From Chiloscyllium plagiosum (Eukaryota), in assembly GCF_004010195.1 (NCBI RefSeq), contig NC_057728.1, positions 18,389,852 to 18,453,851 on the forward strand: a stretch of 64,000 nt of DNA, in the 5' to 3' direction. A program made the translations under genes and the position numbers. Below, piece by piece: positions 2,428-58,970 of this stretch (position 1 is its first letter; every line of letters starts with the position of its first letter). The notes beneath the pieces were generated by a model. It made no database searches. It was not told the origin of the DNA and saw only the letters and a list, made by a program, of their open reading frames with translations.

Positions 2428-4104
2428 CAAGTCTGCGAAAACATTTGTAGCTCAGGTGCCGGTTGTCATAGTTATGATTCTGTTCACTGAGCTGGGAAGT
2501 TGATTTGCAGATGTTTAGTCCCCTGTCTAGGTGACATCTTCAGTGCTTTGGAGCCTCTTGTGAAGCGCTGCTGTACTGTCTCTTCTGGAATTTATTTGGT
2601 TCTGTTCCTGCTGTTTCTGGTTGCCAGTTTTGGTTGTTCATTGTAGTGGCTGGTATACTGGATGTAGTCTATGTGCTTGTTGATGGAGCCCCCGTGGCTG
2701 AATGCCATGTTTCTAGAAATTCTCTGGCTGCCCTCTGTTTGGCTTGTCCAATGATATTGTGTTGTCCCAGTCAAATTTATGGTCCTTGTCATCTGTGTGT
2801 GTGGCTACTAGGGACAGCTGGTCATGGCGTTTAGTGGCTAGTTGGTGTTTGTAGATGCGGATTGTTAGTTGTCTGCCTGTTGACCTGCATAATGCTGCAT
2901 GCAGTCTTTGCATGGAATCTTGCAAATTATGTTTGTCTTGCACATGATGGGTATAGGATCTTTCAACAACCAAGCATATGAACAGATCAATGGAACACCG
3001 ATGTGCTCACCCATCTTGGGGCACATAGCAGAAGCAGTGATGCAAAGACTGGAACAAGCAGCCCTTCCACAAATCCTACCCAAACTTTGGATGAGATACA
3101 TGGATGACACTTTTGTTATCATTCAGAGAACAGAAATTAACACCTTGGTCACAGGGATCAGATTTACGAGAGAGGAGGAAACCAACAATCAACTCGCATT
3201 CCTGGATGTGATGGTGAAAAGAACACAAAACAATTAATGCACTACAAAAGTATACAGAAAAGCCACATACACACTGACCAGGTCCTGAACTACAACAGCA
3301 ACTACCTGAACACACACAAGAGAACCTGCATTAGGACCCTGTTTAAACGGGCTACAGCACACTGCAGCACTCCTGACCTACGAAGGGAAGAAGAACACCT
3401 TTCAAGCATATTCGCCAAGAACGGATATCCCCCAACTTCATCCGCAGATGCCTAACAGACAATGTGACGAGGACATGCCACGACCTAACTCACTTGCCAC
3501 GCTACCTTACATAAAAACACCTCAGAACTGACAGCCAGTGATCACTGGGATTCATGACAGCCCATAAACCGACAGCCACACTCAGACAGCAACTCACCAG
3601 GACAAAAGACCTGATACTCATCATGTGCAAGATAAACATAATTTACAAGATTCCATGCAAAGACTGCACGAAACACTATACAGGGCCAACAGGCAGACAA
3701 CTAGCAATCCGCATCCACGAACACCAACTAGCTACCAAACACCACAACCAAGTGCCCCTAGTAGCCACACACAGACATCAAGGACCACAAATTCGACTGC
3801 ACCAACAAAACAATCATTGGACAAGCCCAAACAGAGGACAGACAGAGAATTTCTAGAAGCATGGCACTTATCCACAGACTCCATTAACAAGCACATAGAC
3901 TGAGACCTAATATACCAGCCACGCCAATGAACAATCTGAATAGACAATCGGAAGTAGCAGGAACGGAATCAAATAAATTACAAGCGACACAGTACAGCAG
4001 CGCTTCACAGGAGGCTCCAAAGCACTGAAGATGTCACTTTGACAGAGGACGGAATGTCTGCAAATCAACTTCCCAGCTTGGTGAACATACTCACAACTAC
4101 GACT
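2428..4104 (+). mobile_element. Penelope-like retroelement (Poseidon-like), decayed RT + GIY-YIG, with an inverted copy of its 3' end
   Basis: RT motifs GTPMCSP..AEAVMQRLE, RYMDDTF, FTREEE..LAFLDV. Endonuclease IIYKIPCKDCTKHYTGPTGRQL..RIHEH. 2428-2963 is the reverse complement of about 3605-4104. Stops and frameshifts present. Confidence 0.9.
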
Positions 4105-5387: not shown

Positions 5388-8228
5388 CTGTATGAGCAAG
5401 AGACACACATTTTCTGGACAGAAGTAAAATGATTTACTCTTAAAACTACCACAGACTGGCCCTGGGATTACTGATTATAAAAGGTAAAGTGGTCCAAAAT
5501 TACAGCTCTCCATTCTGATTTGCCCAAAAGCAAGGTTTCTATACATATGTTTCTTTTTTAATAAAGATCTTACAGGTATATGTCATAAACAATTATTTAA
5601 TTCCAAGTAGTGACTATCGTTATGGAAGAAACTACGGTAGCCATTTCAATGAAAATGAGAAGCTTCTTCGCCTTTTGGTGTTAGGTAAACATGGTATTCT
5701 CATCATTACACGATACCTTTCTCTTCTTTACTTCTTGAAATGAATCATTTGTAATGGGGACTTGGTTCTCTGATGCAATGTGCACGAGATGTGGGAAGTG
5801 TTTCATGCATATTGACAAGCAGCTGGTAGTTTATCAGGAAAAAACAGAATCAGATTCAAAGACTTGTTCCTGATTCAACACACCATTTGGATTCTATTCC
5901 ACTGTTCAACCTTCACTGACCAAGACGGAGAAGGGAGGTTGTTGTTCCAGCTGATAACTGAGACAGTAAGTAATGATAGACTATTGCACAGAAAACATAG
6001 CAACATAGCTATAACAATATTTTGGGAAGAGAGCTCAGGAAACTTTGTGCCAGATCTTAAATTATTTGTATTTCCTATTACAACTTTTCATAATTAGGCT
6101 GCATCTTCTGACACAACCAGAAATTATGAAGCAGTAAATGCTGGAAATCAGACAGCACCTAAGAATAAAACAAACAAGTTAATGCTTTAAATGTAATCCT
6201 TCATCAGAAACAAACAACAAACTATTATTTAAACAGAACCATTATTTAAACAGAATAAAGGCAACGTGAGAATAAAATGCATTGATCAGTGAATAAACCT
6301 ATGATCTATTGAAAGGTATTTTAGATGGCTGAGATCATTTTTCCATCAGACTATGAGAAGTACTGTGGGACTGCTGTGTTACAGATCACTCAAAGTCTGA
6401 GTTACTTATTGCAGATTGGAGTCATGGATAGTAGAGGTTCCAACTTTCTTTCTATTACATGGATGGCCAATCCACTTCATACTCTTTCTCTCTGTTCCAC
6501 ATCTACAAATTTGATTTATGCATAAACCAGGCACAGGCAGAGGGCAGCAAATGCAACAGAGTCACTGACCGATTGCAGGGAAAACCAGGTGATCAAGCAG
6601 CTGAGTCAGGAGAACGTGTATTGGTCTCACATTTTGCTGTGTTTCTGCTCCTCTCCATCTATGGTACAGGCTCCCATACCTTAGGATTGAAACCCAACTT
6701 CACAGGCACTAGCAACTGCACCAGGTGTTGAGAAAAGGTGAGATGGGTTAGCGAGAACATGTGCAAGTACATAGTGTCAGAGAAGAAAGTTGGGAAGAGG
6801 GTCTTCTGAGTGAGTGGTGGCAGCAATGCGGGGGGTTGGCTTAAGAAGGGCCGCTGAGTGAAAGGCTGCGTGCATGTGTTATAGGAAAAGGAACTGGACT
6901 ATGAGTGTGGATTAGGAAGGATCGGAAAAGAAAAATTTTGAAGTACTTTAAAAACTTAGATTCTCAAATCTGTTTGATATTTTAGTCCATCATACAGAAA
7001 CTTCAATATCTAGTGAATGTTAGTATCTGTTTTTCTGCTTGTGATCGGGGTCAACAGGATAGTACTGGAAACTTTTATGGGAAGCACTGCACTAATCTGT
7101 TTGACTACTTCCATTGGAGAGACCATATAAACCTAAGTGACCTACCTCATTGAACAGTCTATCCCCATCACTTGCTATGACCCACAATCATTATGACCTT
7201 TCTGATACCGTACTTGTACAATGTACCAATGAAATTTCACTCAGCTTCAAGAACAACAGCGTATCTTTTTACCACAAGGCCTTAATTAAGCTTCTAATTT
7301 CTTTACAATAGGGACTGGTGATGTGAAATTGATTAGTCTGCATTGAAAAGACAGGTTGGATGATGTAGTGGAGAACCTGCTGCCAGAACACAAGGTGGGA
7401 ATGAATCTGTTCTCTCGGTGACCAATCTTGTTTTCTTATACACAAGTTTTTAACCTCTCTCTCACCCACAAGTTTCCAAACTTATTTGTCTTCTGCTGTC
7501 TCAAATGGTCACACATTCATTACTCTTAATATCATTGTATTCATCTAATCAACATTTAATTCAACTGATCTCAAGCCATTGTTTTGAGTTTGTTTTAATA
7601 TGAGTCATTTTTCTATTCTTGTTGAAGGATTACATTGGAAGCATGAAGTTACTTGTTGTCCAAAAATGCTGACTGTCCTACTCTCTGTTTTTAATGTACT
7701 CTGCTTTATTTTTTGACATTTCATTATCTTCTGTGCCATTGATTTATTGATTTGGAATGATCTAATGACTTGGAAACAAAATCCAAAAATTGTCATCAAA
7801 CAGGGTGTCCTCCAAGTCTGAATGCTCTTGCAATAAGGATCTGAGAGTGATAAAGATGTTGTGAAGTGGTTGAAGTGGGCTTTTAACACATCAACTTGCA
7901 TTTATAGAACACCATAAAATGTACAAAGCCCAGAAGCATAACAAAAATTCAAAGATATAATAAAAGAAAATTCAATGCCAAAAATTAGGAGGGATGACCA
8001 AAAGCCAAAGAGGCATTTTAAAAGATAGTCTTAAAACCAAAAGGAGGTGGAAAACTGAAGGATTTAATGGCGTAACCACAAGGAAATTTAAATGTAAGAA
8101 CAGGATTTTAACTTTGAGGTATTAAAGGACTGCATGGAGAAAGTGAGGACTGCAGATGCTGGAGATCAGAGCTGAAAATGTGTTGCTGGAAAAGCGCAGC
8201 AGGTCAGGCAGCATCCAACAAGCAGGAG

Positions 8229-8264
8229 AATCGACGTTTCGGGCATGAGCCCTTCTTCAGGAAT
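8229..8264 (-). ncRNA. Minimal hammerhead ribozyme core on the PHF21B sense strand
   Basis: Reverse complement reads attcCTGAAGAaGGGCtcatGCCCGAAACGTCgatt. Confidence 0.7.
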
Positions 8265-8277
8265 TGTCCTGAAGAAA

Positions 8278-8313
8278 ATTCCTGAAGAAGGGCTCATGCC
8301 CGAAACGTCGATT
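8278..8313 (+). ncRNA. Minimal hammerhead ribozyme core (PLE type)
   Basis: CTGAAGA-A-GGGC-tcat-GCCC-GAAA-CG-TC: conserved core, 4-bp helix II, palindromic ACGT in place of helix III. Confidence 0.7.
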
Positions 8314-8739
8314 CTCCTGCTCCTTGGATGCTGCCTGACCTGCTGCACTTTTCCAGCAACACATTAAAGGACTGCATGCCAATGTAGATTAACAAAGATA
8401 AATAGATAATTGTGGGCTAGGATAGAATAATGCCAATAGAATATGAAACAAGTCATATGTTTTCAAAAGGGATTATAAAATTACCTAAAGGGAAAAGATT
8501 GACAATGTCAGAAGTAAAACAGCTAAGATAGGGTAGTCAGTATTGTCTGAAGCATCAGAAAGTTCACCCATTCTTTGTGTGCGAGCCTATGTCAGGCTAT
8601 TCAACGATACAGAACATTATAGATGAGACTAATCCTATCCACATCTGACATGCATGAATAATTCCAGCAAGAGCAACTGAATTGCAATTGAAAGCAGAAC
8701 TGTGGCAATTTTCCCCTCCTAAAATACAAGTAATGTTGG

Positions 8740-9064
8740 TCACCATATTGAAGGAAGGATGTAATTGCATTGGAGACAGTTCAGAGAAGGTTTACTCAAC
8801 TAATACTTGAAATGGATGGTTTGTCTTGTGAGGAAAAGTTGCACAGGTTAGGCTTGTACTGTTGAGAGTTTTGAAGGGTAAGAGCTGGTGAATTGATTGA
8901 AACATAACATTAATATTTTTAAGGCAGAGGCAGACAGGCTCCTGTTAAGCTAGGGTTAAAAGATTAACCAGGGGAGAAAGTTTGAGGTTACAATCAGATC
9001 AGCTGTTGTCTTTCTGAATGGTGGAGCAGATTCGAGAGGCTGACTGGCCTACTTTTGCCCCGAT
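8740..9064 (+). mobile_element. CR1-type LINE 3' fragment, degraded
   Basis: aggaaggatgtaattgcattggag..gttcagagaaggtttac and tail gaatggtggagcag..cgagaggctg..tggcctact. Confidence 0.75.
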
Positions 9065-9181
9065 TCAAATGTTGCTGCGATGCTGAAACTTTCTAATCCA
9101 TTTAGCTGAGAAATTCACTTTATTAACTAGCTTAAAAGTGATAAGCAAAATTATTCTAATGAACAGAAGTTGAGTCTGTAC

Positions 9182-9337
9182 CTTTTCCTGGCACCTGGGG
9201 CAGACCCACACCCCCTTGGGAATGGTCTTGAGAGGAGGTTCTAAACATTCCAGATGATATACACGAGAGCAAGTGTCACACAGAAGAAGTTGACCACTAC
9301 GTTTGCACACTGTACAGTAATCCTCATGAATATCATC
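9182..9337 (-). CDS. PHF21B: PHF21B PHD-finger exon: [52 protein letters not shown]
   Basis: 156 nt, ttttttaag| and aag|gtacag, phase 0-0. Complete C4HC3 PHD signature. Confidence 0.96.
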
Positions 9338-9606
9338 CTTAAAAAATGAAAAAGAAATGACTATATTAATTGAAATAAATTTCAGTGTACTGCAGAATGG
9401 TATGCTGAATCAAGTTTGGAAATTTTGATTGAATGAAGACTTAAATTTGAACACAACTCCACATCAACTTGCATCCAACATCATGATGCTACCATCAAAA
9501 GACATCTTCACCCCTTGCTCTCCTCTTGGCCTGGGGAAGGGCCAAGGGAACAGTTGCCGTTTTACTACTACTTCTTCTTAACTGAACAGTGAATTGTTTA
9601 CATGCC

Positions 9607-9960
9607 ATACACGCATCACCCTCTGTGTGAAAAAGTTGCTCCTTGGGTCCCTTTTACCTTTCCCCTCTCACCCTAAACCTATGCCCTCGAGTTCTGGACT
9701 CCCCCATCCCAGGGAAAAGAGCTAGTCTACTTATCATATCCATACCCCTCATGATTTTATAAACCTCTATAAGATCAACCCTCAGCCTCCGACACTCCAG
9801 GGAAAACAGCCCCAGCTTATTCAACCTCTCTTCATAGCTCAAATCCTCCAACCCTGCCAACATCCTTGTAAATCTTTTCTGAACTCTTTCAAGTTTCACA
9901 ATATCCTTCCTATAGGAAGGAGACTGGAATTGTATGCAATATTCAAAAAGTGGCCTAACC
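9607..9960 (-). mobile_element. CR1/HER1-type LINE ORF2 C-terminal fragment
   Basis: ORF LVRPLFEYCIQF.SP.YRKDIVKLERVQKRFTRML..RTRGH. Confidence 0.9.
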
Positions 9961-10991
9961 AAACTGAAACTTGGAACTGCTCCCACTCTGCAGGAACTAC
10001 CTTACATAACTATGCCAGTTATTTGCCTCTACTGAATATTCCAGCCATAACATCTTTACCAACTAAGCCTCTGGAGAACTTCACTTAATCAAAACAGTAA
10101 ACAAAATCAATAGTCATATGGTCATAACTTGTCACATTTGGCAACTAACCACCAGCTTCCCAAAGGTAATTAGGGACAGACAATAAATGGTGGCCTAGCT
10201 AATGACACACACACACATTCATGAAAGAAATAATGAAATGTTGGTAATTTTAACAGCAAGTCCCTTTAAACCTCATTTATTTGTATTTTTTTAAGATAAT
10301 GACAAAACTATTTTGTTTTATGCTCAAACCAAAATGAGTAAATCTTGTTTGCCATATACAGTTCTATATATACTTGAAAAGCACTTTATGAAAAATTACA
10401 AAAATTCATATGAATAAACAGAGTAGTTGCAGATGAGCTGCAGTGGAAGTGCAAGGATAAAATAAGACGGAGCAGAGTGGCATACCATGACAGCAAATCT
10501 GGCAGTAGGTACAAACAGCAACAGCAAATATTTGTTATAAGGATGGCATGGAAAATGAAAGCTTAGAGATCATGCCTTTTTATGTAATACAGCACCATAG
10601 ACAGCAGCTCTAGAAAGACAGCTCATCATTTATATCTTGGTATCAAACCATGCTGGTGCTAAATAAATACCTATTATAACCAACTATTGCACGATTTGCA
10701 TGTCCAAACCTTTGTCCTTGAAATTCTGCTTTTCATAAATGTAATGCTTTCCTAATAATCCTTACTGATTCATTCAATATAGCTGCAAATCTCTCCAATA
10801 TGCTTATCTAATGGATTGTCCTATTAATAAATATGACAATTTAAAAGCAACAATACATTTTCAGATACATCACAAACATGTTTAAACATAAAGCTAGAAC
10901 TTGTATTATACTGCTCATGTCTTGCAGTAATAAAAATTTTTGATTGCCAAGAGATTTACACAGTAAAAGTCACTGAATGGATGAGACATAC

Positions 10992-14000: not shown

Positions 14001-14788
14001 AGTTATTAATTCACAGTTCTGAGCACAAGAGGTTGAGAGAGAGGTTGCAGATTATTGTACTCCCTACATGATGTGGTGGGTATTTCTGAAGTGCCTTTCG
14101 GCTCACCCACATTTTCCTTTTTATTTCTTAATTGTTTTTTGCTTCTAACACTATATCATCAATTATAGCAAAGCAGTACTTGTATTGGTAAGTCTAAAAG
14201 AAAACATTGCAGTTAATGGAAATCTGAAATGAAAACAAAATACTGCAAGTACTCAGCAGATCAGATGGCATTTGTAAAAAAGAGTGGAATTTGATGCCAC
14301 TCAGAAAAAAAGGTGACAAATTACATTGTTAACATTACGCCAGAAAGCGTGTAAAAGGAGAGTATGTTTGATTTCATTATTATACGTGATGCACTATTTA
14401 GTGGTAATAGTGCTCATCATAAATTGGAACCTCCTACTCAACACCTCTCCCTGGCTTCCTGTCCTTGCAAAGATCACTCCCCCACACATCCACAGTCTGA
14501 CAAAAACTCAAGCTGGATAAAACCATCTGTGCTGCACCTTACTTACCACTCCATAATGACACATTCAATACTCTCTGTCTTCCATCTCGGCTCCCTATAT
14601 GGAGCACTCTTCCTAAGCAAGTTCTACCAAGACACCCTTTAGATCAAGAAGTGGTGTGAATGCCTTATGCACTTGTGGACAGACATACACAAGGCTGCAT
14701 CTTATCAAGGAGTGCCCCTTCTATAAATTAACTAGCAGACTAATCATCTTAAACTCAACAAATCAGGCTTGGCTTTGAGGATTTCCAT

Positions 14789-16680
14789 GAGAAAGTGAGG
14801 ACTGCAGAGGCTGGAGATCAGAGCTGAAAATGTGTTGCTGGAAAAGCGCAGCAGATCAGGCAGCATCCAACGAGCAGGAGAATCGACGTTTCGGGCATGA
14901 GGCCTTTTTCAGGAATGAGGAAAGTGTGTCCAGCAGGCTAAGATAAAAGGTAGGGACTTGGGGGAGGGGCGTTGGAAATGCGATAGGTGGAAGGAAGTCA
15001 AGGTGAGGGTGATAGGCTGGNNNNNNNNNNNNNNNNNNNNNNNNNNNNNNNNNNNNNNNNNNNNNNNNNNNNNNNNNNNNNNNNNNNNNNNNNNNNNNNN
15101 NNNNNNNNNNNNNNNNNNNNNNNNNNNNNNNNNNNNNNNNNNNNNNNNNNNNNNNNNNNNNNNNNNNNNNNNNNNNNNNNNNNNNNNNNNNNNNNNNNNN
15201 NNNNNNNNNNNNNNNNNNNNNNNNNNNNNNNNNNNNNNNNNNNNNNNNNNNNNNNNNNNNNNNNNNNNNNNNNNNNNNNNNNNNNNNNNNNNNNNNNNNN
15301 NNNNNNNNNNNNNNNNNNNNNNNNNNNNNNNNNNNNNNNNNNNNNNNNNNNNNNNNNNNNNNNNNNNNNNNNNNNNNNNNNNNNNNNNNNNNNNNNNNNN
15401 NNNNNNNNNNNNNNNNNNNNNNNNNNNNNNNNNNNNNNNNNNNNNNNNNNNNNNNNNNNNNNNNNNNNNNNNNNNNNNNNNNNNNNNNNNNNNNNNNNNN
15501 NNNNNNNNNNNNNNNNNNNNNNNNNNNNNNNNNNNNNNNNNNNNNNNNNNNNNNNNNNNNNNNNNNNNNNNNNNNNNNNNNNNNNNNNNNNNNNNNNNNN
15601 NNNNNNNNNNNNNNNNNNNNNNNNNNNNNNNNNNNNNNNNNNNNNNNNNNNNNNNNNNNNNNNNNNNNNNNNNNNNNNNNNNNNNNNNNNNNNNNNNNNN
15701 NNNNNNNNNNNNNNNNNNNNNNNNNNNNNNNNNNNNNNNNNNNNNNNNNNNNNNNNNNNNNNNNNNNNNNNNNNNNNNNNNNNNNNNNNNNNNNNNNNNN
15801 NNNNNNNNNNNNNNNNNNNNNNNNNNNNNNNNNNNNNNNNNNNNNNNNNNNNNNNNNNNNNNNNNNNNNNNNNNNNNNNNNNNNNNNNNNTTTGCTACTT
15901 GGAGAATTAACTGCAGTGTGGGAGAGTGCAGACTCTCTCAAAGAGATCAGTGTCCATATTGTCATGATCGTGATCGCCGCCCACACGATAAATCGTAGGC
16001 TCAAGCATCTCTGCTGCTGCTGTTTTGTTCCAGACAATTGAATTTTCAATGGAACCGAAGAGAGACCGTTATTTCATCGCTGTTGTGAAACAAAGTTCTA
16101 TAGTGACTCTACTAGCCATTATTTTCTGTTTTGGCGAATGGGAAAATTATTCCAATGAATTTCGATGTCATATGTTCTTAAATTTCTACCATTTCTTTCA
16201 TTCTGTTCTGGAGACGGCAGAAGGGAAAGGTAATCTAATCGAGAATGTGGTTGGTGAAATTCACTTTTCATGGCCCATTCTTTTTGTATTCTTTCTTTCT
16301 CTCTTTTCAGCACTTTCTGGGAAATGGCGGTGCACTAAGGCTCCAGGATGTTTGCAAGAGCAGACTGGAATTCCCCTGCTGTTAGTTGCGAGATTAGTAT
16401 ATGGCTCAAGCGCCTGGTTGTGCCCGCCAGAAACTACCCTTGTCTTTCCTGACCTCTCCGCCCCCACCCCACCCCGGTCTATCACCCTCACTTTGACCTC
16501 CTTCTACCTATCGCATTTCCAACGCCCCTCCCCCAAGTCCCTCCTCCCTACCTTTTATCTTAGCTTGCTGGACACACTTTCCTCATTCCTGAAAAAGGGC
16601 TCATGCCCGAAACGTCGATTCTCCTGCTCCTTGGATGCTGCCTGACCTGCTGCGCTTTTCCAGCAACACATTTTCAGCTC
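14789..16680. mobile_element. Family-1 Penelope pLTR insertion with inverted ends and a 13-bp TSD, spanning a gap and non-repeat internal DNA
   Basis: TSD tgaggatttccat at 14776-14788 and 16681-16693. Arms 14789-15020 and about 16437-16680 are reverse complements. Confidence 0.75.
15021..15890. other. Assembly gap (N run)
   Basis: 870 N. Confidence 1.
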
Positions 16681-17784
16681 TGAGGATTTCCATTCATTAA
16701 ATAAATAATCAGAAAAATAAAAGTTTAATGCTTATTTATCTTCATTATAACTTCATTTTTTGAGGATTTATGGTCAGCTCTCTTGCATCTTCCCTCATCC
16801 AACTTCCATACCCAGATGTGGCCCACCAAATGAGAGGTAGGCCTGCTTAGAAGAAAAAGGGTTGCTGATCTTTGGGGGCACAATGTCCTGCAAGTTCACC
16901 TCCGAACTATTCTAGGAGTGCAATCATCTGTGTTGAGTGTGTCTGAAGGCAAAACAGTCTGAAAATTGTCGTGACAAGTAAATATAGCACAATACATCAA
17001 ACTTGTTACAGGATTAATGGTTGAAAAATTATAGCAATTTCTTATAAATTCTGATGAAATGCAAATACTTCTGGGCAAATCCAACCATGGTTGTATTGGT
17101 GAGGTAGACAAGTAGTCATCACATCCTCAAGGGAGATAACGTCATGGAATCTGTGGACCAGATTTTCCACTCCCTTGAGCAGCCTGGGCAATGATGGAAC
17201 AATTAAGAAAATAGGATGAAAATAGCAAAATCAGGTTCTTAATGTTGAGAAAAAAAGTTCTGACTTTCTCCTTGGATTTAAATAACAGATTCGGAATCTC
17301 ACTAATGAGTGATGATTACCTTATTTCCATGTATTTACACTCAGTATTAGTTAAACATGCCTCAGTTCTATGCAATTCTATTTTCCTTTCCTTCCCAGAG
17401 AAACTACATAGTGCCAATTCCCAGCATGAAAGTCAAAGTGGTTACCTGGCAACAGAAACTCACCACTTGCATCTCCAGGCAAATAATTCTGTCTTCACCA
17501 GAATAATCCTGCATACTTCATGAACATATTCTTTCTCTACCTTTCATCCACACAAGTAGACATTGCCAAATCACCAACCTCACCACATCACCATGGCTGC
17601 ATCCATCTCTGTATGATTTCATTTTGGAGCTCAGGGATACTTATATGCTTCTGTTAGGTCACTTTGGCCACGGAGGCATGCATGCATCCACACAGACTGC
17701 ATTTTCGGAATCTTAGCTTACTTTCTTAGCAGTCATTCACTTTATGCTCATTCGGAAGCTGCCAGCCTTCTCTTTAGTGATGAA

Positions 17785-18096
17785 ATTAGATTCCCTACAG
17801 TGTGGAAACGGGTCCTTCAGCCCAACAAGTCCACACCAACTCTCCGAAGAGCAACCCACCCAAACCCATTTCCCTCTGACTAATACACTGACACTATGGG
17901 CAATTTTAGCATGGCCAATTCCCCTGACGTGCACATCTTTGGACTGTGAAAGGAAACTGGAGCACCCAGAGGAAACCCAGAGAGACACAGGAAGAATGTG
18001 CAAACTCCACACAGACAGTCGCCCGAGGCTGGAATTGAACCCAGGTTCCTGGCACTGTGAGGCAGCCGTGCTAACCACTGAGCCACTGTGCCGCCC
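17785..18096 (-). mobile_element. HE1-type V-SINE
   Basis: Full-length match to the other copies. Confidence 0.9.
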
Positions 18097-20671
18097 CAGT
18101 GTGCGGCTACAGGCTGTCAACCTCTGTGGTTTGCACTTCTTTTCAGTACAGAAGGGAGACACAGGCAGCTGGTCATCGCTTTGAACAATGAACAGTCAAA
18201 GGGATGGACATTTGCTGTAGAGCATGACACTATGTCAATATCACACCAACATGTATGAGCAATTTATGCAGCAAATGCACTGCACGTAATTCAAACAAAT
18301 GCCATGTCTAAAAGTCAAAGGGCCAGTCCTTAGTGGGCGGATAGCTATAAACTATTATTCACACAGTGGCCTATAGCTAATGGGAAAGAAATATTTCACC
18401 AAGAGGTAGCTTTCGATCAAACCAACTTTTGAGGATGATATGGAAGACTCAGAGGATGTACAAATTATACACTTTACTTTGCAAAAGGACATTTTCTTCC
18501 TCGAGTGGTGGGGAGATCCTTCTTATTTGGCATGGTTTACAATCTGGTAAGTACTTCATTGACACGTTCCAGCAGCTGATAGAGATTGTAACAAGTAAAA
18601 GTTTCTGACAGTTGAAAAACTGAAGAATATTCTCCATGACAGTGACATGCCCATGTAAACAGCCATAAGAAACTTGACTGACATGCATAATGAAGGGAGG
18701 AAAACATTTAGTATAGATGTCCAAGGCTATGAACCGACTTAGCTAAAAGGTGGAAACGCCTGTCCAAGTTCTGAGGGCTGTCGTGGCTTAAGCATGCTAG
18801 TACTTTGCTTCCAAAAACTGGCAATGTCCATGGAAAGCCAGATGTAGCTGAACTATTGGATATCCACTTAGACTTGCATTCCATCATTCCAGTTGAAGAA
18901 TCAATGTACCAGTGATTAGATGAGAGGGGATGAGACACATGTACCTCCTTTCAGATGCCCTTTCCCCTGAAGGACGCAGGAAGTGCTGAGACGGAGAAGG
19001 AGTGCATGCCAGCAATCCTGTGGGCCTTCTTCTCAGGACACTCTTGGGTTGGCGAGCCTGCACAACCCCTCCAGTACTGACTCCAGCAAGTGAAAATAAG
19101 GGGACTGCTCCTGTACTCATTCATAGTGAGCAAAATGCCTTAGCCTCAACTGCTGATCTTCCATCAATCCCAACTTAATTAGTCAATGCTAGTTCATTTC
19201 CATAGATTCATTCTGTTTATGAGAAACTGACTTTTGGTCATTTACACAATTAAGTTACTTTGTCTAACTTACTACCAGCTTCGGGGAGCATCATAAGGTT
19301 CCGCCCTATTTTCCCCACATGCCTTCCACTAGAACGCATGAACATTAATTGGTTTGTAATGGGAGTCAATTCACTCAATAAATACAGACTAATAATTATA
19401 GCCCTATGTAACTAAAACTTTTTCGCACTTTTTTTTCATAACAATATACTAATTATACACGGATGAACAGTTACAAATACTCTGGATTTTAATTAAAGAC
19501 TTAATACTATATGCAAGTTACAAGCGATCTATATATCTAAGAGGAAATCAACTCAGCCCTTGCTTGATACGTCACATGTCATATGACAACACTGACTGCA
19601 AAGATGTTGTACACTCCTTCTTTACATTGTTCATTCAAGTAATATCATAATCATGAGTGCATTACAAGGAAAGGAAAATCCAAAAGGAATATTGTTCTTT
19701 TTCAAAAGACACTGCTGAGTACTAGCGATTATGGTACGTACTAAATTAACAAACTGTAGGTCAAGATCAAATTCTGATGAACAAAACCTTGAACCCGAAT
19801 TTAAAAATCCAATAATTTGCCACCAAATTCCAACTATACAATCATAGCCACCAAAATCTAACTGTATGAATGGTGCCTATTTGGCCCATTGACTTAGTGC
19901 TGGTTTTCCACAACAGCAATTTAGTTAGTCCCATGCCCTGCCCTGTCCCCGTAGTCCAGAACATTTTCTCTCTTTAGATGAGAATTTCATTTTGAAAGTC
20001 AGAACTGACTATGCCTCCATCACCTTCTTGGGCACTGCATTCCAGATCCTAATCACTCACATTTTATGTTGCCTTTGATTCTTTTGCCATTCACCTTGAA
20101 TCATATCCTATAGTCCCAATTTTCCAAGTCTTTCAAGATTGGGCAGGGTAAAAAGAAGTTATAAAATATTTACATTTACACAGGAAATGCTTCAATGACA
20201 TGCTCACAATCTCAGTGAAAAAGTACAACTCCTCTAATGACTCAGAGAACACTAACCAGGACCATTGAAGTGGAGGGAAGAAATCCGGGATGGATTTGTG
20301 CACTTCAAATCACATTGCTGTTGCTAGCTGAAGTCAAGCATCAACAAAGAAAGGAATGTGTGGTAACCTGGGTATACCATCTTGTCATTCCTCAAACTGT
20401 GCCCAACCAGTGATAGGTGCCAAAGGTTATGCATTAGGTTCTGCCTAAGAGACTGTCTAAGAAGAGCATTTTTCTCTTCAAGAAATATAAACTCCGTAAT
20501 ATAATTGCTCATTTACACCAATTATGAATGCTGTGTCTACTTCAAACTGGTAGTTGACACATCTTGTTCCTATGCAAAGTCTGCAATTTTGCTTCTCCTC
20601 CTATCCATATTTGCAGGAAATATATATGTGGTGTGGTTTAATAACGTGATACAAAAGCAAACAAAGCACAG

Positions 20672-27599: not shown

Positions 27600-28302
27600 T
27601 CCCTATGAATCCAATCTTACAAAGGGTCAATGATCCTCAACAGCTTGCATTTATACAGCATTATTATACTTGTGAAACATTCCAAAGCATTTCCACAGGT
27701 ATGTCGCCAAATACTATTTGGCATCAAGCCATATTAGGAGATATCAAATCAAACACTAAGGTTTACAGAAGTGCCTTAAATGAGTGGTAGAGAGGCCTAA
27801 CAAGAAAATTCCACAGGAACCAGGAAACTGAAGATAAGGCCAAACTGGTACTGTGATTATTAGTTTAGTTCATAAGGCCAGATTTGAAGGAATAAAGAGA
27901 ATCCTAAAGTTTGTGGAGTTGGAAAAGATTAAGAGACAGACTGATTTAAGAATGAGGATATCTGCAAGGTTACTTCATTCTTCACTAATCATAAGGCTCA
28001 TTTTCAGAACACAGGGATAGGTAATCATACACCGAAACTTTAAATTTTGATTCAGTCATCCTCTGCTATCGCTGCTTATATACTAGAAGATAAATGTTTT
28101 TCAACTTTTCCTCAGTGTTATTTCAGTTAACCACACTCCATAAAATGTACACACTTTGGCTTCCCATATTGTATCCAATTAACCCTTAATTAATACATAC
28201 ATAACCTGTTCCCTCAATCCATTAGGTCAACCTTTCAGACCATACTAGATGATAACATCATTAATCAGAAACGGAACTGGACCAGCCATATAAATAGAAA
28301 GG

Positions 28303-28520
28303 ATAAAGTGAGGATTGCAGATGCTGGAGATCAGTCAAAAAATGCAGCGCTGGAAAAGCACAGTCAGTCAGGCAGCATCTGAGGGGTAGGAGAGTCAGGA
28401 ATGTGGGGAGTGCCCAAAAAAGCTGAGAGATAAATGGGTTGGGACTGGGGGGGAAGGTAGCTAGGAATGTGATATGTGGATGAAGGTGGGGGATGATGGT
28501 GTAGGTCGGAGTGGTGGGGA
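28303..28520 (-). mobile_element. Penelope pLTR fragment (family-1 related), interrupted by an HE1 SINE
   Basis: aaagtgaggattgcagatgctggagatcag..ctggaaaagcacag..tcaggcagcatc. Confidence 0.7.
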
Positions 28521-35797: not shown

Positions 35798-35912
35798 GGG
35801 GCTGCCCGAAATGTCGATTCTCCTGCTCCTTGGATGCTGCCTGACCTGCTGCGCTTTTCCAGCAACACATTTTCAGCTCTGATCTCCAGCATCTGCAGTC
35901 CTCACTTTCTCC
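35798..35912 (+). mobile_element. 5'-truncated family-1 pLTR 3' end
   Basis: gcccgaaatgtcgattctcctgctcc...ctcactttctc. The hammerhead 5' core is missing. Confidence 0.85.
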
Positions 35913-38045: not shown

Positions 38046-38399
38046 CTACTGAACCTAGAGACCATATTTACTTACATAACAGAGCTATCAGAAGGGTATT
38101 CACCATAACCACCAGATGTTCAAGACAAATCCATGTCAATCAGATCATTGCTATATGCCAAGGACGTCAGACAAAAATCCCATTCTGAGCAACATTTCAG
38201 CGGCAAATAGATAAACTCTCATGCATCTAAATAGGTGGACTGACCATAAGCACCAGTGTGGTGCTGGAAAAGCACAACCGGTCAGGAGGCATCCGAGGAG
38301 CAGGAGAGTTGACATTTCCAGCATAAGCTCTTCATTAGGAATGTAGGAGAATTCTTCAAGGTGGCATCCTCAAAAGAGGCTTCCCTCCTGACCATAAGC

Positions 38400-45965: not shown

Positions 45966-46153
45966 AGGAGAAAGTGAGGACTGCAGATGCTGGAGATCAG
46001 AGCTGAAAATGTGTTGCTGGAAAAGCGCAGCAGGTCAGGCAGCATCCAAGGAACAGGAGAATCGACGTTTCGGGCATAAGCCCTGAAGAAGGGCTTATAG
46101 CGATACGTCGATTCTCCTGTTCCTTGGATGCTGCCTGACCTGCTGCGCTTTTC
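45966..46153. mobile_element. Hairpin Penelope pLTR insertion (family 1) with a 15-bp TSD
   Basis: cagatataccgtatg at 45951-45965 and cagatataccatatg at 46154-46168. Inverted arms. Confidence 0.88.
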
Positions 46154-46489
46154 CAGATATACCATATGGACTATTACAAGCCATTAAATTGCAATACTTA
46201 GCTATTGCTCTTTTTTTTTACTTTTTCCAAAAAATATTTCATGGAAATAATCTGAATGCATCTTTTTCCACTAAACATTTGTTTATTTCCACTCCAAAGA
46301 ATTTGTCTTTTGGCTGATGGTCTCTTTATGTTACTCTGACACCTTATATGTTTTGCCCATAATCCTCAAAATTAATCATTTGCATTCGATCAAAATATTC
46401 ATCATGCTACAATCACTGCCCCCAAAGTATTCGCTCAGTTTTAGAGAGAGTTTTGAGAGACTTAACTCATTGCACAAGATTCTATTGGT

Positions 46490-57399: not shown

Positions 57400-58970
57400 G
57401 GGAACAACATGGGAACAAGGGAAAGAATAGGAAACTGCAGGCCAGTCAGTATAACTTCAATGGTGTGGAAACTATTGGAAGCAATTCTGAGGGACAGGCT
57501 TGATCTGCACTCATAGAGGCAGGGATTAATCAAGAACAGTCAGCATTGTTTTGTTAAAGGGAGGGTATTTCTGACCAACTCAATTGAATTTTCCAAAAAG
57601 TAACCATGTGTGTCAGTGAAAACAATACATTCACCATAGTCTGCTTGGATTTCAGCAAGGCTTTTGATTAGGTCTCACATTCTTTGTGAAGATAAGAGCC
57701 CATGGGATCCAAGGAAATTTGGCTAACTGAATCCAAAATTGGCTGAATGGCATGATGCAGACTATATCAAGGGATATTTTTGTGACTGGAAACCTGTGTT
57801 CCATTGTGATCAGTGTCAGGGCCCTTGCTGTTTGTGGTACATATAAGCTATTTCGAGTTGATCCTCGGAGGGTTGATCAGAAAAATTGTAGATATATGAA
57901 AATTAGTGGAGTGGTAAATTAGGAGGAAGATTATTTTAGATTACAGAAAGATATGGATGGGGTGGTCAGAAGGGCTGATCAGTGGCAAGTGGAACTCAAT
58001 ACAGGTAAGTATGAGGTAATATTTGAGTGGTAGGAGTCTGGGAAGCACCAAGGGTTCAGCGGGACCTTGGTGTGCATGTCCACTGGCCCTATGAGTTAGC
58101 AGGTCACTTAGATAATGTAGCTAAGAAAACATATTTTGCCTTTATTAGCTGAGGCATAGAGTTTAAAATGGAAGTTATGCTGTCACTGTATAACATGTCT
58201 GTTAGGCTACAGCTAGAGTATTCTGTGCAGTTGTGAAATCCGTATTATAGGAGAAATATGATTGCGATGGAGAGAGTGCAGATGAGATTTACAAGGATGT
58301 TGCTTGGGCTGGAGACTTTCAATTATGAAAAAGATTGGATAGACTGGGGTTGTTTTCCTTGGAGCAAAGGAGGCTACAGGGGCACATAACTGGGATGTAT
58401 AAAATTGAGAGGCATAGATAATGTAGACAGGAAGGAACATTTCCCCTCGGTGGAGGGATCAATGACCAAGACGCAAAGTATTAAGCTTAGGTCGGAGATT
58501 TAGAGGGGATGTGAGGAAATTATTTTTCACTCATAGGCTAGTGAGAATCTAGAACTGCTGCCTGTAAGAGTGGAAGAGGCAGAACATTCAAGGTGTATTT
58601 AGATATGCACTTGTGATGTCAGGGCACACAAGGATATGGGCGAAAGTGAGTACTGCAGATGCTGGAGATTAGAGTCAAGAGTGTCGTGCTGGAAAAGCAG
58701 GTCAGGCAGCATCTGAGGAGCAGGAAAATCGATGTTTCGAGCAAAAGCCCTTCATCAGGTGGAAAATGGGATTAGAATGGTTAGTATTCTGAGGAAAGTC
58801 ATTCTGAGGAAAATGTTAACTCTGACTTCTCTCCACAGATGCTGCTAGACCTGCTGAGCTCTTCCAGCAATTTTTGCTTTTGTACAAGAATGGTTAGATG
58901 TGGTTGTTTTCAAATGGCACAAACTCAATGCACCAGATAGCCTTTTTTCTATGCTGTAGACCTTTATGAT
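57400..58970 (+). mobile_element. CR1-type LINE RT to 3' end with nested pLTR fragments
   Basis: ggatttcagcaaggcttttga (DFSKAF), LEYSVQL, ERVQMRFTRML. Confidence 0.82.
58643..58760 (-). mobile_element. Penelope pLTR 3' end with a near-intact hammerhead core
   Basis: Minus strand reads cCTGATGAaGGGCttttGCTCGAAACATCgat. Confidence 0.75.

Follow-up and report, generated by a model that had tools for sequence, protein, structure and literature searches.

What is the short, self-complementary insert that lies in an intron of PHF21B in Chiloscyllium plagiosum with a hammerhead core on each strand, and how was it built? We propose, with a probability of about 0.6, that it is a dead-on-arrival insertion of an endonuclease-bearing (EN+) Penelope-like element (PLE), made of two back-to-back pLTR leaders and built by twin priming. 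The identity of the unit, its TSD, the common source of its arms, the use of one 3′ end per arm and the de novo origin of the junction are matters of observation. Below, "the window" is the whole stretch of 64,000 nucleotides that was analysed, and the unit is numbered from the A of ATTCC as position 1. The features of the insert and its surroundings are as follows.

5388..9181, minus strand: host intron of PHF21B, GT...AG, from the PHD-finger exon (9337-9182) to the next exon (from 5387)
8121..8136, no strand: left TSD copy, 100% direct repeat, spacing 242
8137..8264, minus strand: long arm, a pLTR leader covering unit positions 1 (at 8264) to 128 (at 8137, the distal 3′ end)
8137..8170, minus strand: tail of about 34 nt, between the family 3′ ends at about 94 and at 128-130, in the long arm only
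8229..8264, minus strand: minimal type I hammerhead motif, oriented like the host pre-mRNA, with the cut predicted at 8233/8232, after GUC
8265..8277, plus strand: join between the arms, consisting of a 2-nt filler, a 10-nt extra copy and one further A
8278..8362, plus strand: short, tail-less arm, unit positions 1-85
8278..8313, plus strand: another minimal hammerhead motif, in antisense to the host pre-mRNA, with the cut predicted at 8309/8310
8363..8378, no strand: right TSD copy, 100% direct repeat

The preliminary description of this DNA had reported a 226-bp hairpin within a 16-bp TSD, and its coordinates were right: repeat comparison shows identical 16-mers at 8121-8136 and 8363-8378 enclosing 226 bp. 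The two inverted copies that it named are present (8177-8268 and 8274-8365, 96% complementary over 92 nt), but they are unequal, the minus-strand arm measuring 128 nt and alone bearing the tail, the plus-strand arm 85-88 nt, so that about 40 nt of the insert stay unpaired. The RNA fold of the insert has a z-score of -21, and none of 200 shuffles was equally stable. The partial copy noted in the loop is also there, as 10 nt at 8267-8276 that repeat unit positions 3-12, TCCTGAAGAA. At the end of the short arm, positions 86-88 (ATT, 8363-8365) are common to the right TSD, a microhomology of 3 nt, and at the opposite end the last base of the left TSD copy (8136) may double as element base 129. Nine nucleotides of the TSD also occur in the tail region of the element, a likeness due either to chance or to landing in an old copy. 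A target resembling the tail was rejected as a general rule, a 9-nt match being found in 2/46 TSDs against 1/232 controls.

Intronic placement, likewise proposed earlier, is borne out by exon matches. PHF21B has nine of these across 1090-54798 of the window, a 52-aa exon matches PHF21B of several cartilaginous fishes with 100% identity, and the 3.8-kb intron with the hairpin comes directly after the PHD-finger exon. An empty site, suggested earlier as a check, was not found in a related species, whose contigs enter both insert junctions in 3/3 runs, none of them spanning the insert. Since both junctions occur there, the insertion is older than that split; the flanks differ at 20 of 463 bases (~4% diverged).

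From what does the unit derive? All 30 of the GIY-YIG loci that we fetched run on into it, and in a top copy, L021, the GIY-YIG frame lies directly upstream. In L130, a long frame begins in the sequence that follows the unit, and a search with that frame led to L155, a near-full copy with an assembly gap inside, in the order pLTR, ORF start, RT, GIY-YIG, pLTR. Its RVT_1 match (E 2e-6, 28.1 bits) falls just under the cut-off of 29.6, and its GIY-YIG match has an E of 0.006; GIY-YIG is above the cut-off in L021 and L140. Read by eye, the L021 translation has two Cys between IIY and YIG and two His downstream, the CCHH motif. Related proteins combine RVT_1 with GIY-YIG, and the nearest named RT relatives are uncharacterised carpet-shark proteins with 71-80% identity; a PDB search with the element RT gave no useful match. 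Direct pLTR copies flank the ORF in L155, L136 and L147, and inverted ones occur in L036, L047, L048, L051, L057 and L060. The 20 long candidates all have assembly gaps, and an unbroken RT-EN frame was found in none of them. The usual break point is a Pro/Thr-rich, low-complexity repeat linker ahead of the RT (L140, L150, L155). Given the 30/30 GIY-YIG loci and the layout of L155, the unit is, judged from sequence, the pLTR leader plus tail of an RT/GIY-YIG Penelope-like element. The preliminary description would have been given up had the unit failed to match the terminus of such an element; the 30 loci and L155 supply that match.

The 5′ end of the unit is well defined. Among 60 single copies, 34 begin within ~10 nt of position 1 (counted in a numbering one lower than the unit numbering), and none begins at the hammerhead cut. 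Position 1 sits in TCATTCC, which coincides with the 5′ edge of hammerhead helix I and which we take to fit the initiator consensus. Judging by this context, position 1 is probably the transcription start, and we infer that the cDNA ran off a transcript starting there. For the older subfamilies, the BLAST end near position 1 may come instead from upstream divergence. Since the inserts span the cut site, the template RNA must have been uncleaved, and uncleaved RNA also serves as template in vitro (PMC11167929, accessible part).

There are two 3′ ends. In the 30 GIY-YIG-linked copies, the 3′ end lies at 128 in 13 and at 93-99 in 17, several of the latter being simple TSD-flanked copies without an inverted part. 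Both ends recur in the hairpins, divided between the arms. Among 49 hairpins taken by exact junction pattern from the start of contig C1, 37 combine a long with a short arm (short ends at 88-104), nine a long with a still shorter arm, three have two long arms and none two short ones. The tail is therefore on one arm only in 46/49, and the three with two long arms have no TSD. One of each 3′ site is used in 37/40, where free choice would give at most 50% (p = 1e-8). Further hairpins had exactly one long arm in 20/20 cases. Nine of the 49 short arms stop well away from the proximal site; that of the window insert ends 4-9 nt before the modal site (mode 92-96, 30/46 hairpins).

Tail ends were recovered for 59 hairpins, with a clear TSD in 46; these TSDs are 12-19 bp long, 39 of the 46 being 14-17 bp, and most short-arm junctions show a microhomology of 0-3 nt. 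Two different hairpins, L066 and L099, have an identical 15-bp TSD, which suggests that insertion happened more than once at one site inside another repeat.

Longer copies follow the same division. Six of the 30 GIY-YIG loci are long TSD-flanked inserts with an inverted arm; in 6/6 this arm starts at the 3′ site that the main arm does not use, and in 6/6 it is joined hundreds of bases upstream and does not mirror the join. In L036 and L048 the short inverted arm is the tailed one; that of L036 spans only 128 to 93 and abuts the start of the other arm. The two genomic 3′ ends agree with the two in vitro RT start sites of PMC11167929, in the accessible part of which PLE protein nicks and extends both strands, starting at two tail-defining sites. 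That part describes start sites that are alike between strands and does not report a pairing of sites.

Both arms of a hairpin stem from one source. At a variable site in loop II, 5,170 hairpins divide into 1,297 C/C, 3,654 T/T and 219 mixed, so that the arms disagree in 4%, whereas independent templates would give 2,048 (40%). Non-majority letters are shared between arms 125 times, against 27.8 +/- 8.6 in 2,000 shuffles. Twenty mixed loci were inspected with three linked markers: 16 differ at the loop-II site alone, one is uninformative, two are ambiguous and one has two haplotypes, as has L079, a further hairpin. The arms of the window insert have 3 differences in 72 scored sites. Adjacent changes at unit positions 45-46 were considered as a sign of two source alleles, an idea dropped on seeing that the variant has 246 matches against 93,150, which is background. 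At two other loci (G000:C3:110396239-110396336 and G000:C9:24331255-24331363) a rare variant, in 0.3% of copies, is on both arms, which is what the copying of one template into both would give.

Taken by its hairpin shape alone, the insert could pass for a DNA-transposon MITE, or for two independent insertions at one site. Its unequal arms, the 12-19-bp TSDs of the family, the identity of the unit with a PLE pLTR, a single TSD pair around both arms and the concordance of the arms contradict these readings. We regard both as refuted and give them almost no weight; that the object looks like a MITE and is not one, as was suggested earlier, also fits its unique junction.

How, then, would two leaders come to lie back to back? 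Under twin priming, the PLE protein, likely as a dimer (it is predicted to be dimeric in the accessible part of PMC11167929), would nick both strands about 15 bp apart. Reverse transcription would start from one target end at the distal site (128-130) and from the other target end around the proximal site, ~94 (in this insert at 85-88, by way of the ATT microhomology). The template could be a single RNA or a pair of RNAs with a common source. The two cDNAs would each be extended as far as position 1, the 5′ end of the RNA, and run off there; their 3′ ends would be joined with a short templated filler, repair filling in the rest. What weighs against this account is that the short arm of the window insert ends before the modal site, that nine of the 49 short arms stop well away from it, that a few hairpins have two haplotypes and that the start sites in vitro are alike between strands.

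A different route to the same product is fold-back, in which a cDNA begun at 128 reaches the RNA 5′ end, snaps back, copies itself to ~35-40 nt from the target junction and is joined to the other target end by microhomology. This is close to the self-priming idea of PMC3846280 (accessible part). It accounts for same-source arms, palindromic joins, the 10-nt loop copy as an abortive attempt and the 0-3 nt of microhomology at most short-arm junctions; the concordance of the arms is expected from fold-back too, or from later arm-to-arm conversion. For a perfect hairpin, twin priming and fold-back predict identical sequence, so longer copies are needed to separate them. It is these that weigh against fold-back, since in the six long inverted copies the second arm does not mirror the join, and in L036 and L048 the tailed arm is the short one. 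Fold-back also leaves unexplained why the stop point should be the 3′ end of simple copies. We consider it unlikely, though it is the strongest competitor. Since the six inverted copies are non-mirror, the simplest account is that each target end was primed independently. A short snap-back while the ends were being joined is suggested by the 10-nt loop copy, so that a hybrid mechanism is possible.

It is tempting to go further and to see the tail and the inverted pLTR as one phenomenon, in which a dimeric RT-endonuclease uses coupled start sites, one per strand, on one source RNA and yields run-off, strong-stop-like cDNAs. We would put this wider proposal at even odds. Published accounts have explained the inverted part by self-priming on an antisense template (PMC3846280, accessible part) and the tail by endonuclease resolution (bioRxiv 2021.04.23.441226, accessible part). 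A literature search found no published statement of coupled start-site use in PLEs.

Are the hairpins made anew each time, or do they move as hairpins? A genome-wide copy census, proposed as a check in the preliminary description, was carried out with exact sequence patterns, for which reversed controls gave 0 matches. It returned 5,672 head-to-head junctions, 38,682 intact 30-nt cores and, for a 25-nt stretch farther downstream in the unit, 93,150 matches. Unselected DNA (66 stretches of 10 kb, 639,443 called bases) contained single copies and head-to-head pairs at about 3:1 (63 and 20). The junction of the window insert occurs once in the genome, and sampled junctions fall into 34 spacer types; the hairpins were thus formed anew at each insertion. 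The earlier term "retrotransposed pLTR-only element" therefore holds for retro-origin from a Penelope-like pLTR and fails for a distinct element that moves as a hairpin, given the unique junction and the 34 spacers.

The preliminary description had further stressed the hammerheads. An intact core was found on each strand, by sequence and by motif scan: CUGAAGA-A-GGGC(UCAU)GCCC-GAAA-CG-UC starts at 8282 on the plus strand and at 8260 on the minus strand, and a relaxed motif scan of the whole window returned these two and one older copy at 58758. Both arms have the features of minimal hammerheads, namely the conserved core, an extra base before helix II, G10.1-C11.1, the palindromic ACGU, as stated earlier, and NUH. 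An Rfam search of 7000-9500 at E<=10 gave no match to a hammerhead family and four weak miRNA/snoRNA matches far below the gathering score, and the ribozyme is therefore called from its motif rather than from a covariance model. In 1 Mb of loci, of which 34/100 stretches had been picked for hairpins, there were 126 family cores against 0.6 by chance. Helix II is fully paired in 112/126 of them, with a two-sided change in 1/126, and within-family covariation is scant. Helix I of the window insert has three pairs and a U-U mismatch, and a subfamily change restores the pair in 10/126. An older subfamily (L105, L077, L081, L100, L094, L073, L067 and L083) has 7-9 linked changes, one of which turns the helix I U-U into a U-A pair.

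Would such motifs cut? For a dimer, the active-type fold comes to -9.5 and the cofold MFE to -24.1 kcal/mol, with tertiary terms excluded. The motifs lie on opposite strands, so no cis dimer is possible, and with the head-to-head geometry, transcription of either strand reaches the antisense arm first. In the folding model, helix II has a pair probability of 0.98-1.00 in one arm and of 0.000 in either full transcript, and is thus predicted to be fully sequestered in both. Dimer cleavage of PLE hammerheads was reportedly seen by Lunse et al. 2017. Monomer cleavage of the published minimal PLE hammerheads was undetectable (PMC4209133, accessible part), and the anole PLE hammerhead needs PLE protein (PMC11167929, accessible part). 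The hammerheads are therefore best seen as passengers: the hairpin is predicted to lock them, and on their own they would in any case probably be too weak for cleavage.

In the preliminary description, this sequestration by the antisense arm made the ribozyme tolerable in an intron. The sequestration agrees with our prediction. That it is needed does not find support: single arms are in the majority (63 against 20), monomers are inactive in vitro and the anole motif is protein-dependent, so we see no sign of such a need. The full form of the idea is a self-propagating retro-MITE hairpin, selected for intron tolerance through an antisense arm that silences the ribozyme. The 5,672 head-to-head junctions, 22 RNA reads across joins, the loss of helix II in both full transcripts and the early transcription of the antisense arm would suit it. 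Against it stand the unique junction of the window insert, the 34 spacer types, the variable ends of the short arms, the excess of singles over pairs and of exact cores over junctions, and the inactivity of minimal PLE hammerheads as monomers (PMC4209133, accessible part). We hold it to be very improbable.

RNA reads on the full pLTR numbered 1,888 in one run and 0 in a second, and 22 reads cross head-to-head joins. In this fragmented poly(A) single-cell library, which samples mostly passenger copies and cannot serve to test cleavage, splicing or the start site, there was neither an end pile at the predicted cut nor a spliced join in pLTR reads. A pyrimidine tract holds the distal 3′ end and in many copies leads to TAG, splice-acceptor-like, shortly before the long ORF, though the reads gave no support for an acceptor there; the tract was located at L155:990-1006 and in L130 and L005.

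The closest published likeness is with other EN+ PLE insertions. The accessible parts of work on Adineta Pen2a_Av (PMC3846280) and of Craig et al. (bioRxiv 10.1101/2021.04.23.441226, Fig. 2) describe an inverted 5′-truncated pLTR and a one-sided tail of 30-40 bp, and they share with the present insert the head-to-head inverted pLTR, the tail at one end, the single TSD pair and the palindromic join. The anatomy is thus already published. Unlike the insertions in those parts, the hairpins here have no ORF and both arms stop at a common 5′ point; there are thousands of countable copies, and the TSD is narrowly 14-17 bp. To the known anatomy the census adds that the arms have one source (4% against 40% discordance) and that each arm takes one 3′ site in 37/40.

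As far as PMC11167929 is accessible, Poseidon_Ac (PAc) of the green anole also has a pLTR hammerhead closely followed by two 3′ ends some 35 nt from each other, an uncleaved RNA template and an AC-rich proximal end. The ORF of PAc starts in helix II, whereas here an in-loop ATG opens 27 codons only and the long frame lies downstream of the tail. Apart from a helix I of 4-5 bp, as the class has it, the features listed for minimal metazoan PLE hammerheads in the accessible part of PMC4209133 are present here; our motif has a helix II of 4 bp and a weak helix I of three Watson-Crick pairs plus the mismatch, and its two copies, on opposite strands, exclude a cis dimer. Like the non-LTR retrozymes (bioRxiv 10.64898/2026.07.22.740005, accessible part), the insert is PLE-derived, non-coding and hammerhead-bearing; those form head-to-tail tandem arrays, and the insert is one head-to-head pair, which places it outside that class. 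A search for literature on Penelope hammerheads in sharks found no relevant paper, and the supplement of PMC4209133 may list shark motifs.

Taken by itself, the locus is a harmless-looking intronic repeat, and such hairpins can be mistaken for MITEs or microRNA precursors. Twin priming of L1 is the subject of PMC2837659. In L1, both target ends prime and an inverted insert forms within one TSD, with short microhomology at the second junction. The arms of L1 are different parts of the RNA, whereas here both arms copy one leader, and the second priming uses a site fixed for the family. As a class, the stubs bring counts to bear on the origin of tandem and inverted PLE structures and of the tail, an open question in the accessible part of bioRxiv 2021.04.23.441226, and they make a precise prediction that bears on the in vitro PLE system already available. 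If the coupling is true, the hairpins document, across a whole genome, a step in PLE integration that is still unsolved.

The window holds further copies and other repeats. A unit copy at 14789-14916 (minus strand, ending at 128) and another at 16585-16683 (plus strand, ending at ~96-99) are flanked together by a single 13-bp direct repeat, and 14776-16693 looks like one long inverted insertion with an internal assembly gap; both hammerhead cores within it have an identical G8-to-A change. A second hairpin of the family lies at 45968-46156, also in a PHF21B intron, with a 15-bp TSD, arms ending at 128 and 79, and cores damaged at the join. More single or older unit copies are at 28302-28379, 38257-38342 and 58642-58759, and a coreless one at 35803-35911 is ~100 bp from a PHF21B exon (35701-35351). 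By eye, 2835-3903 contains decayed pieces of a different Penelope-type RT and GIY-YIG region, 9654-10001 a CR1-like LINE 3′ fragment, and 1801-2330 (an inverted pair) and 17717-18195 tRNA-type SINE copies, presumably HE1-like.
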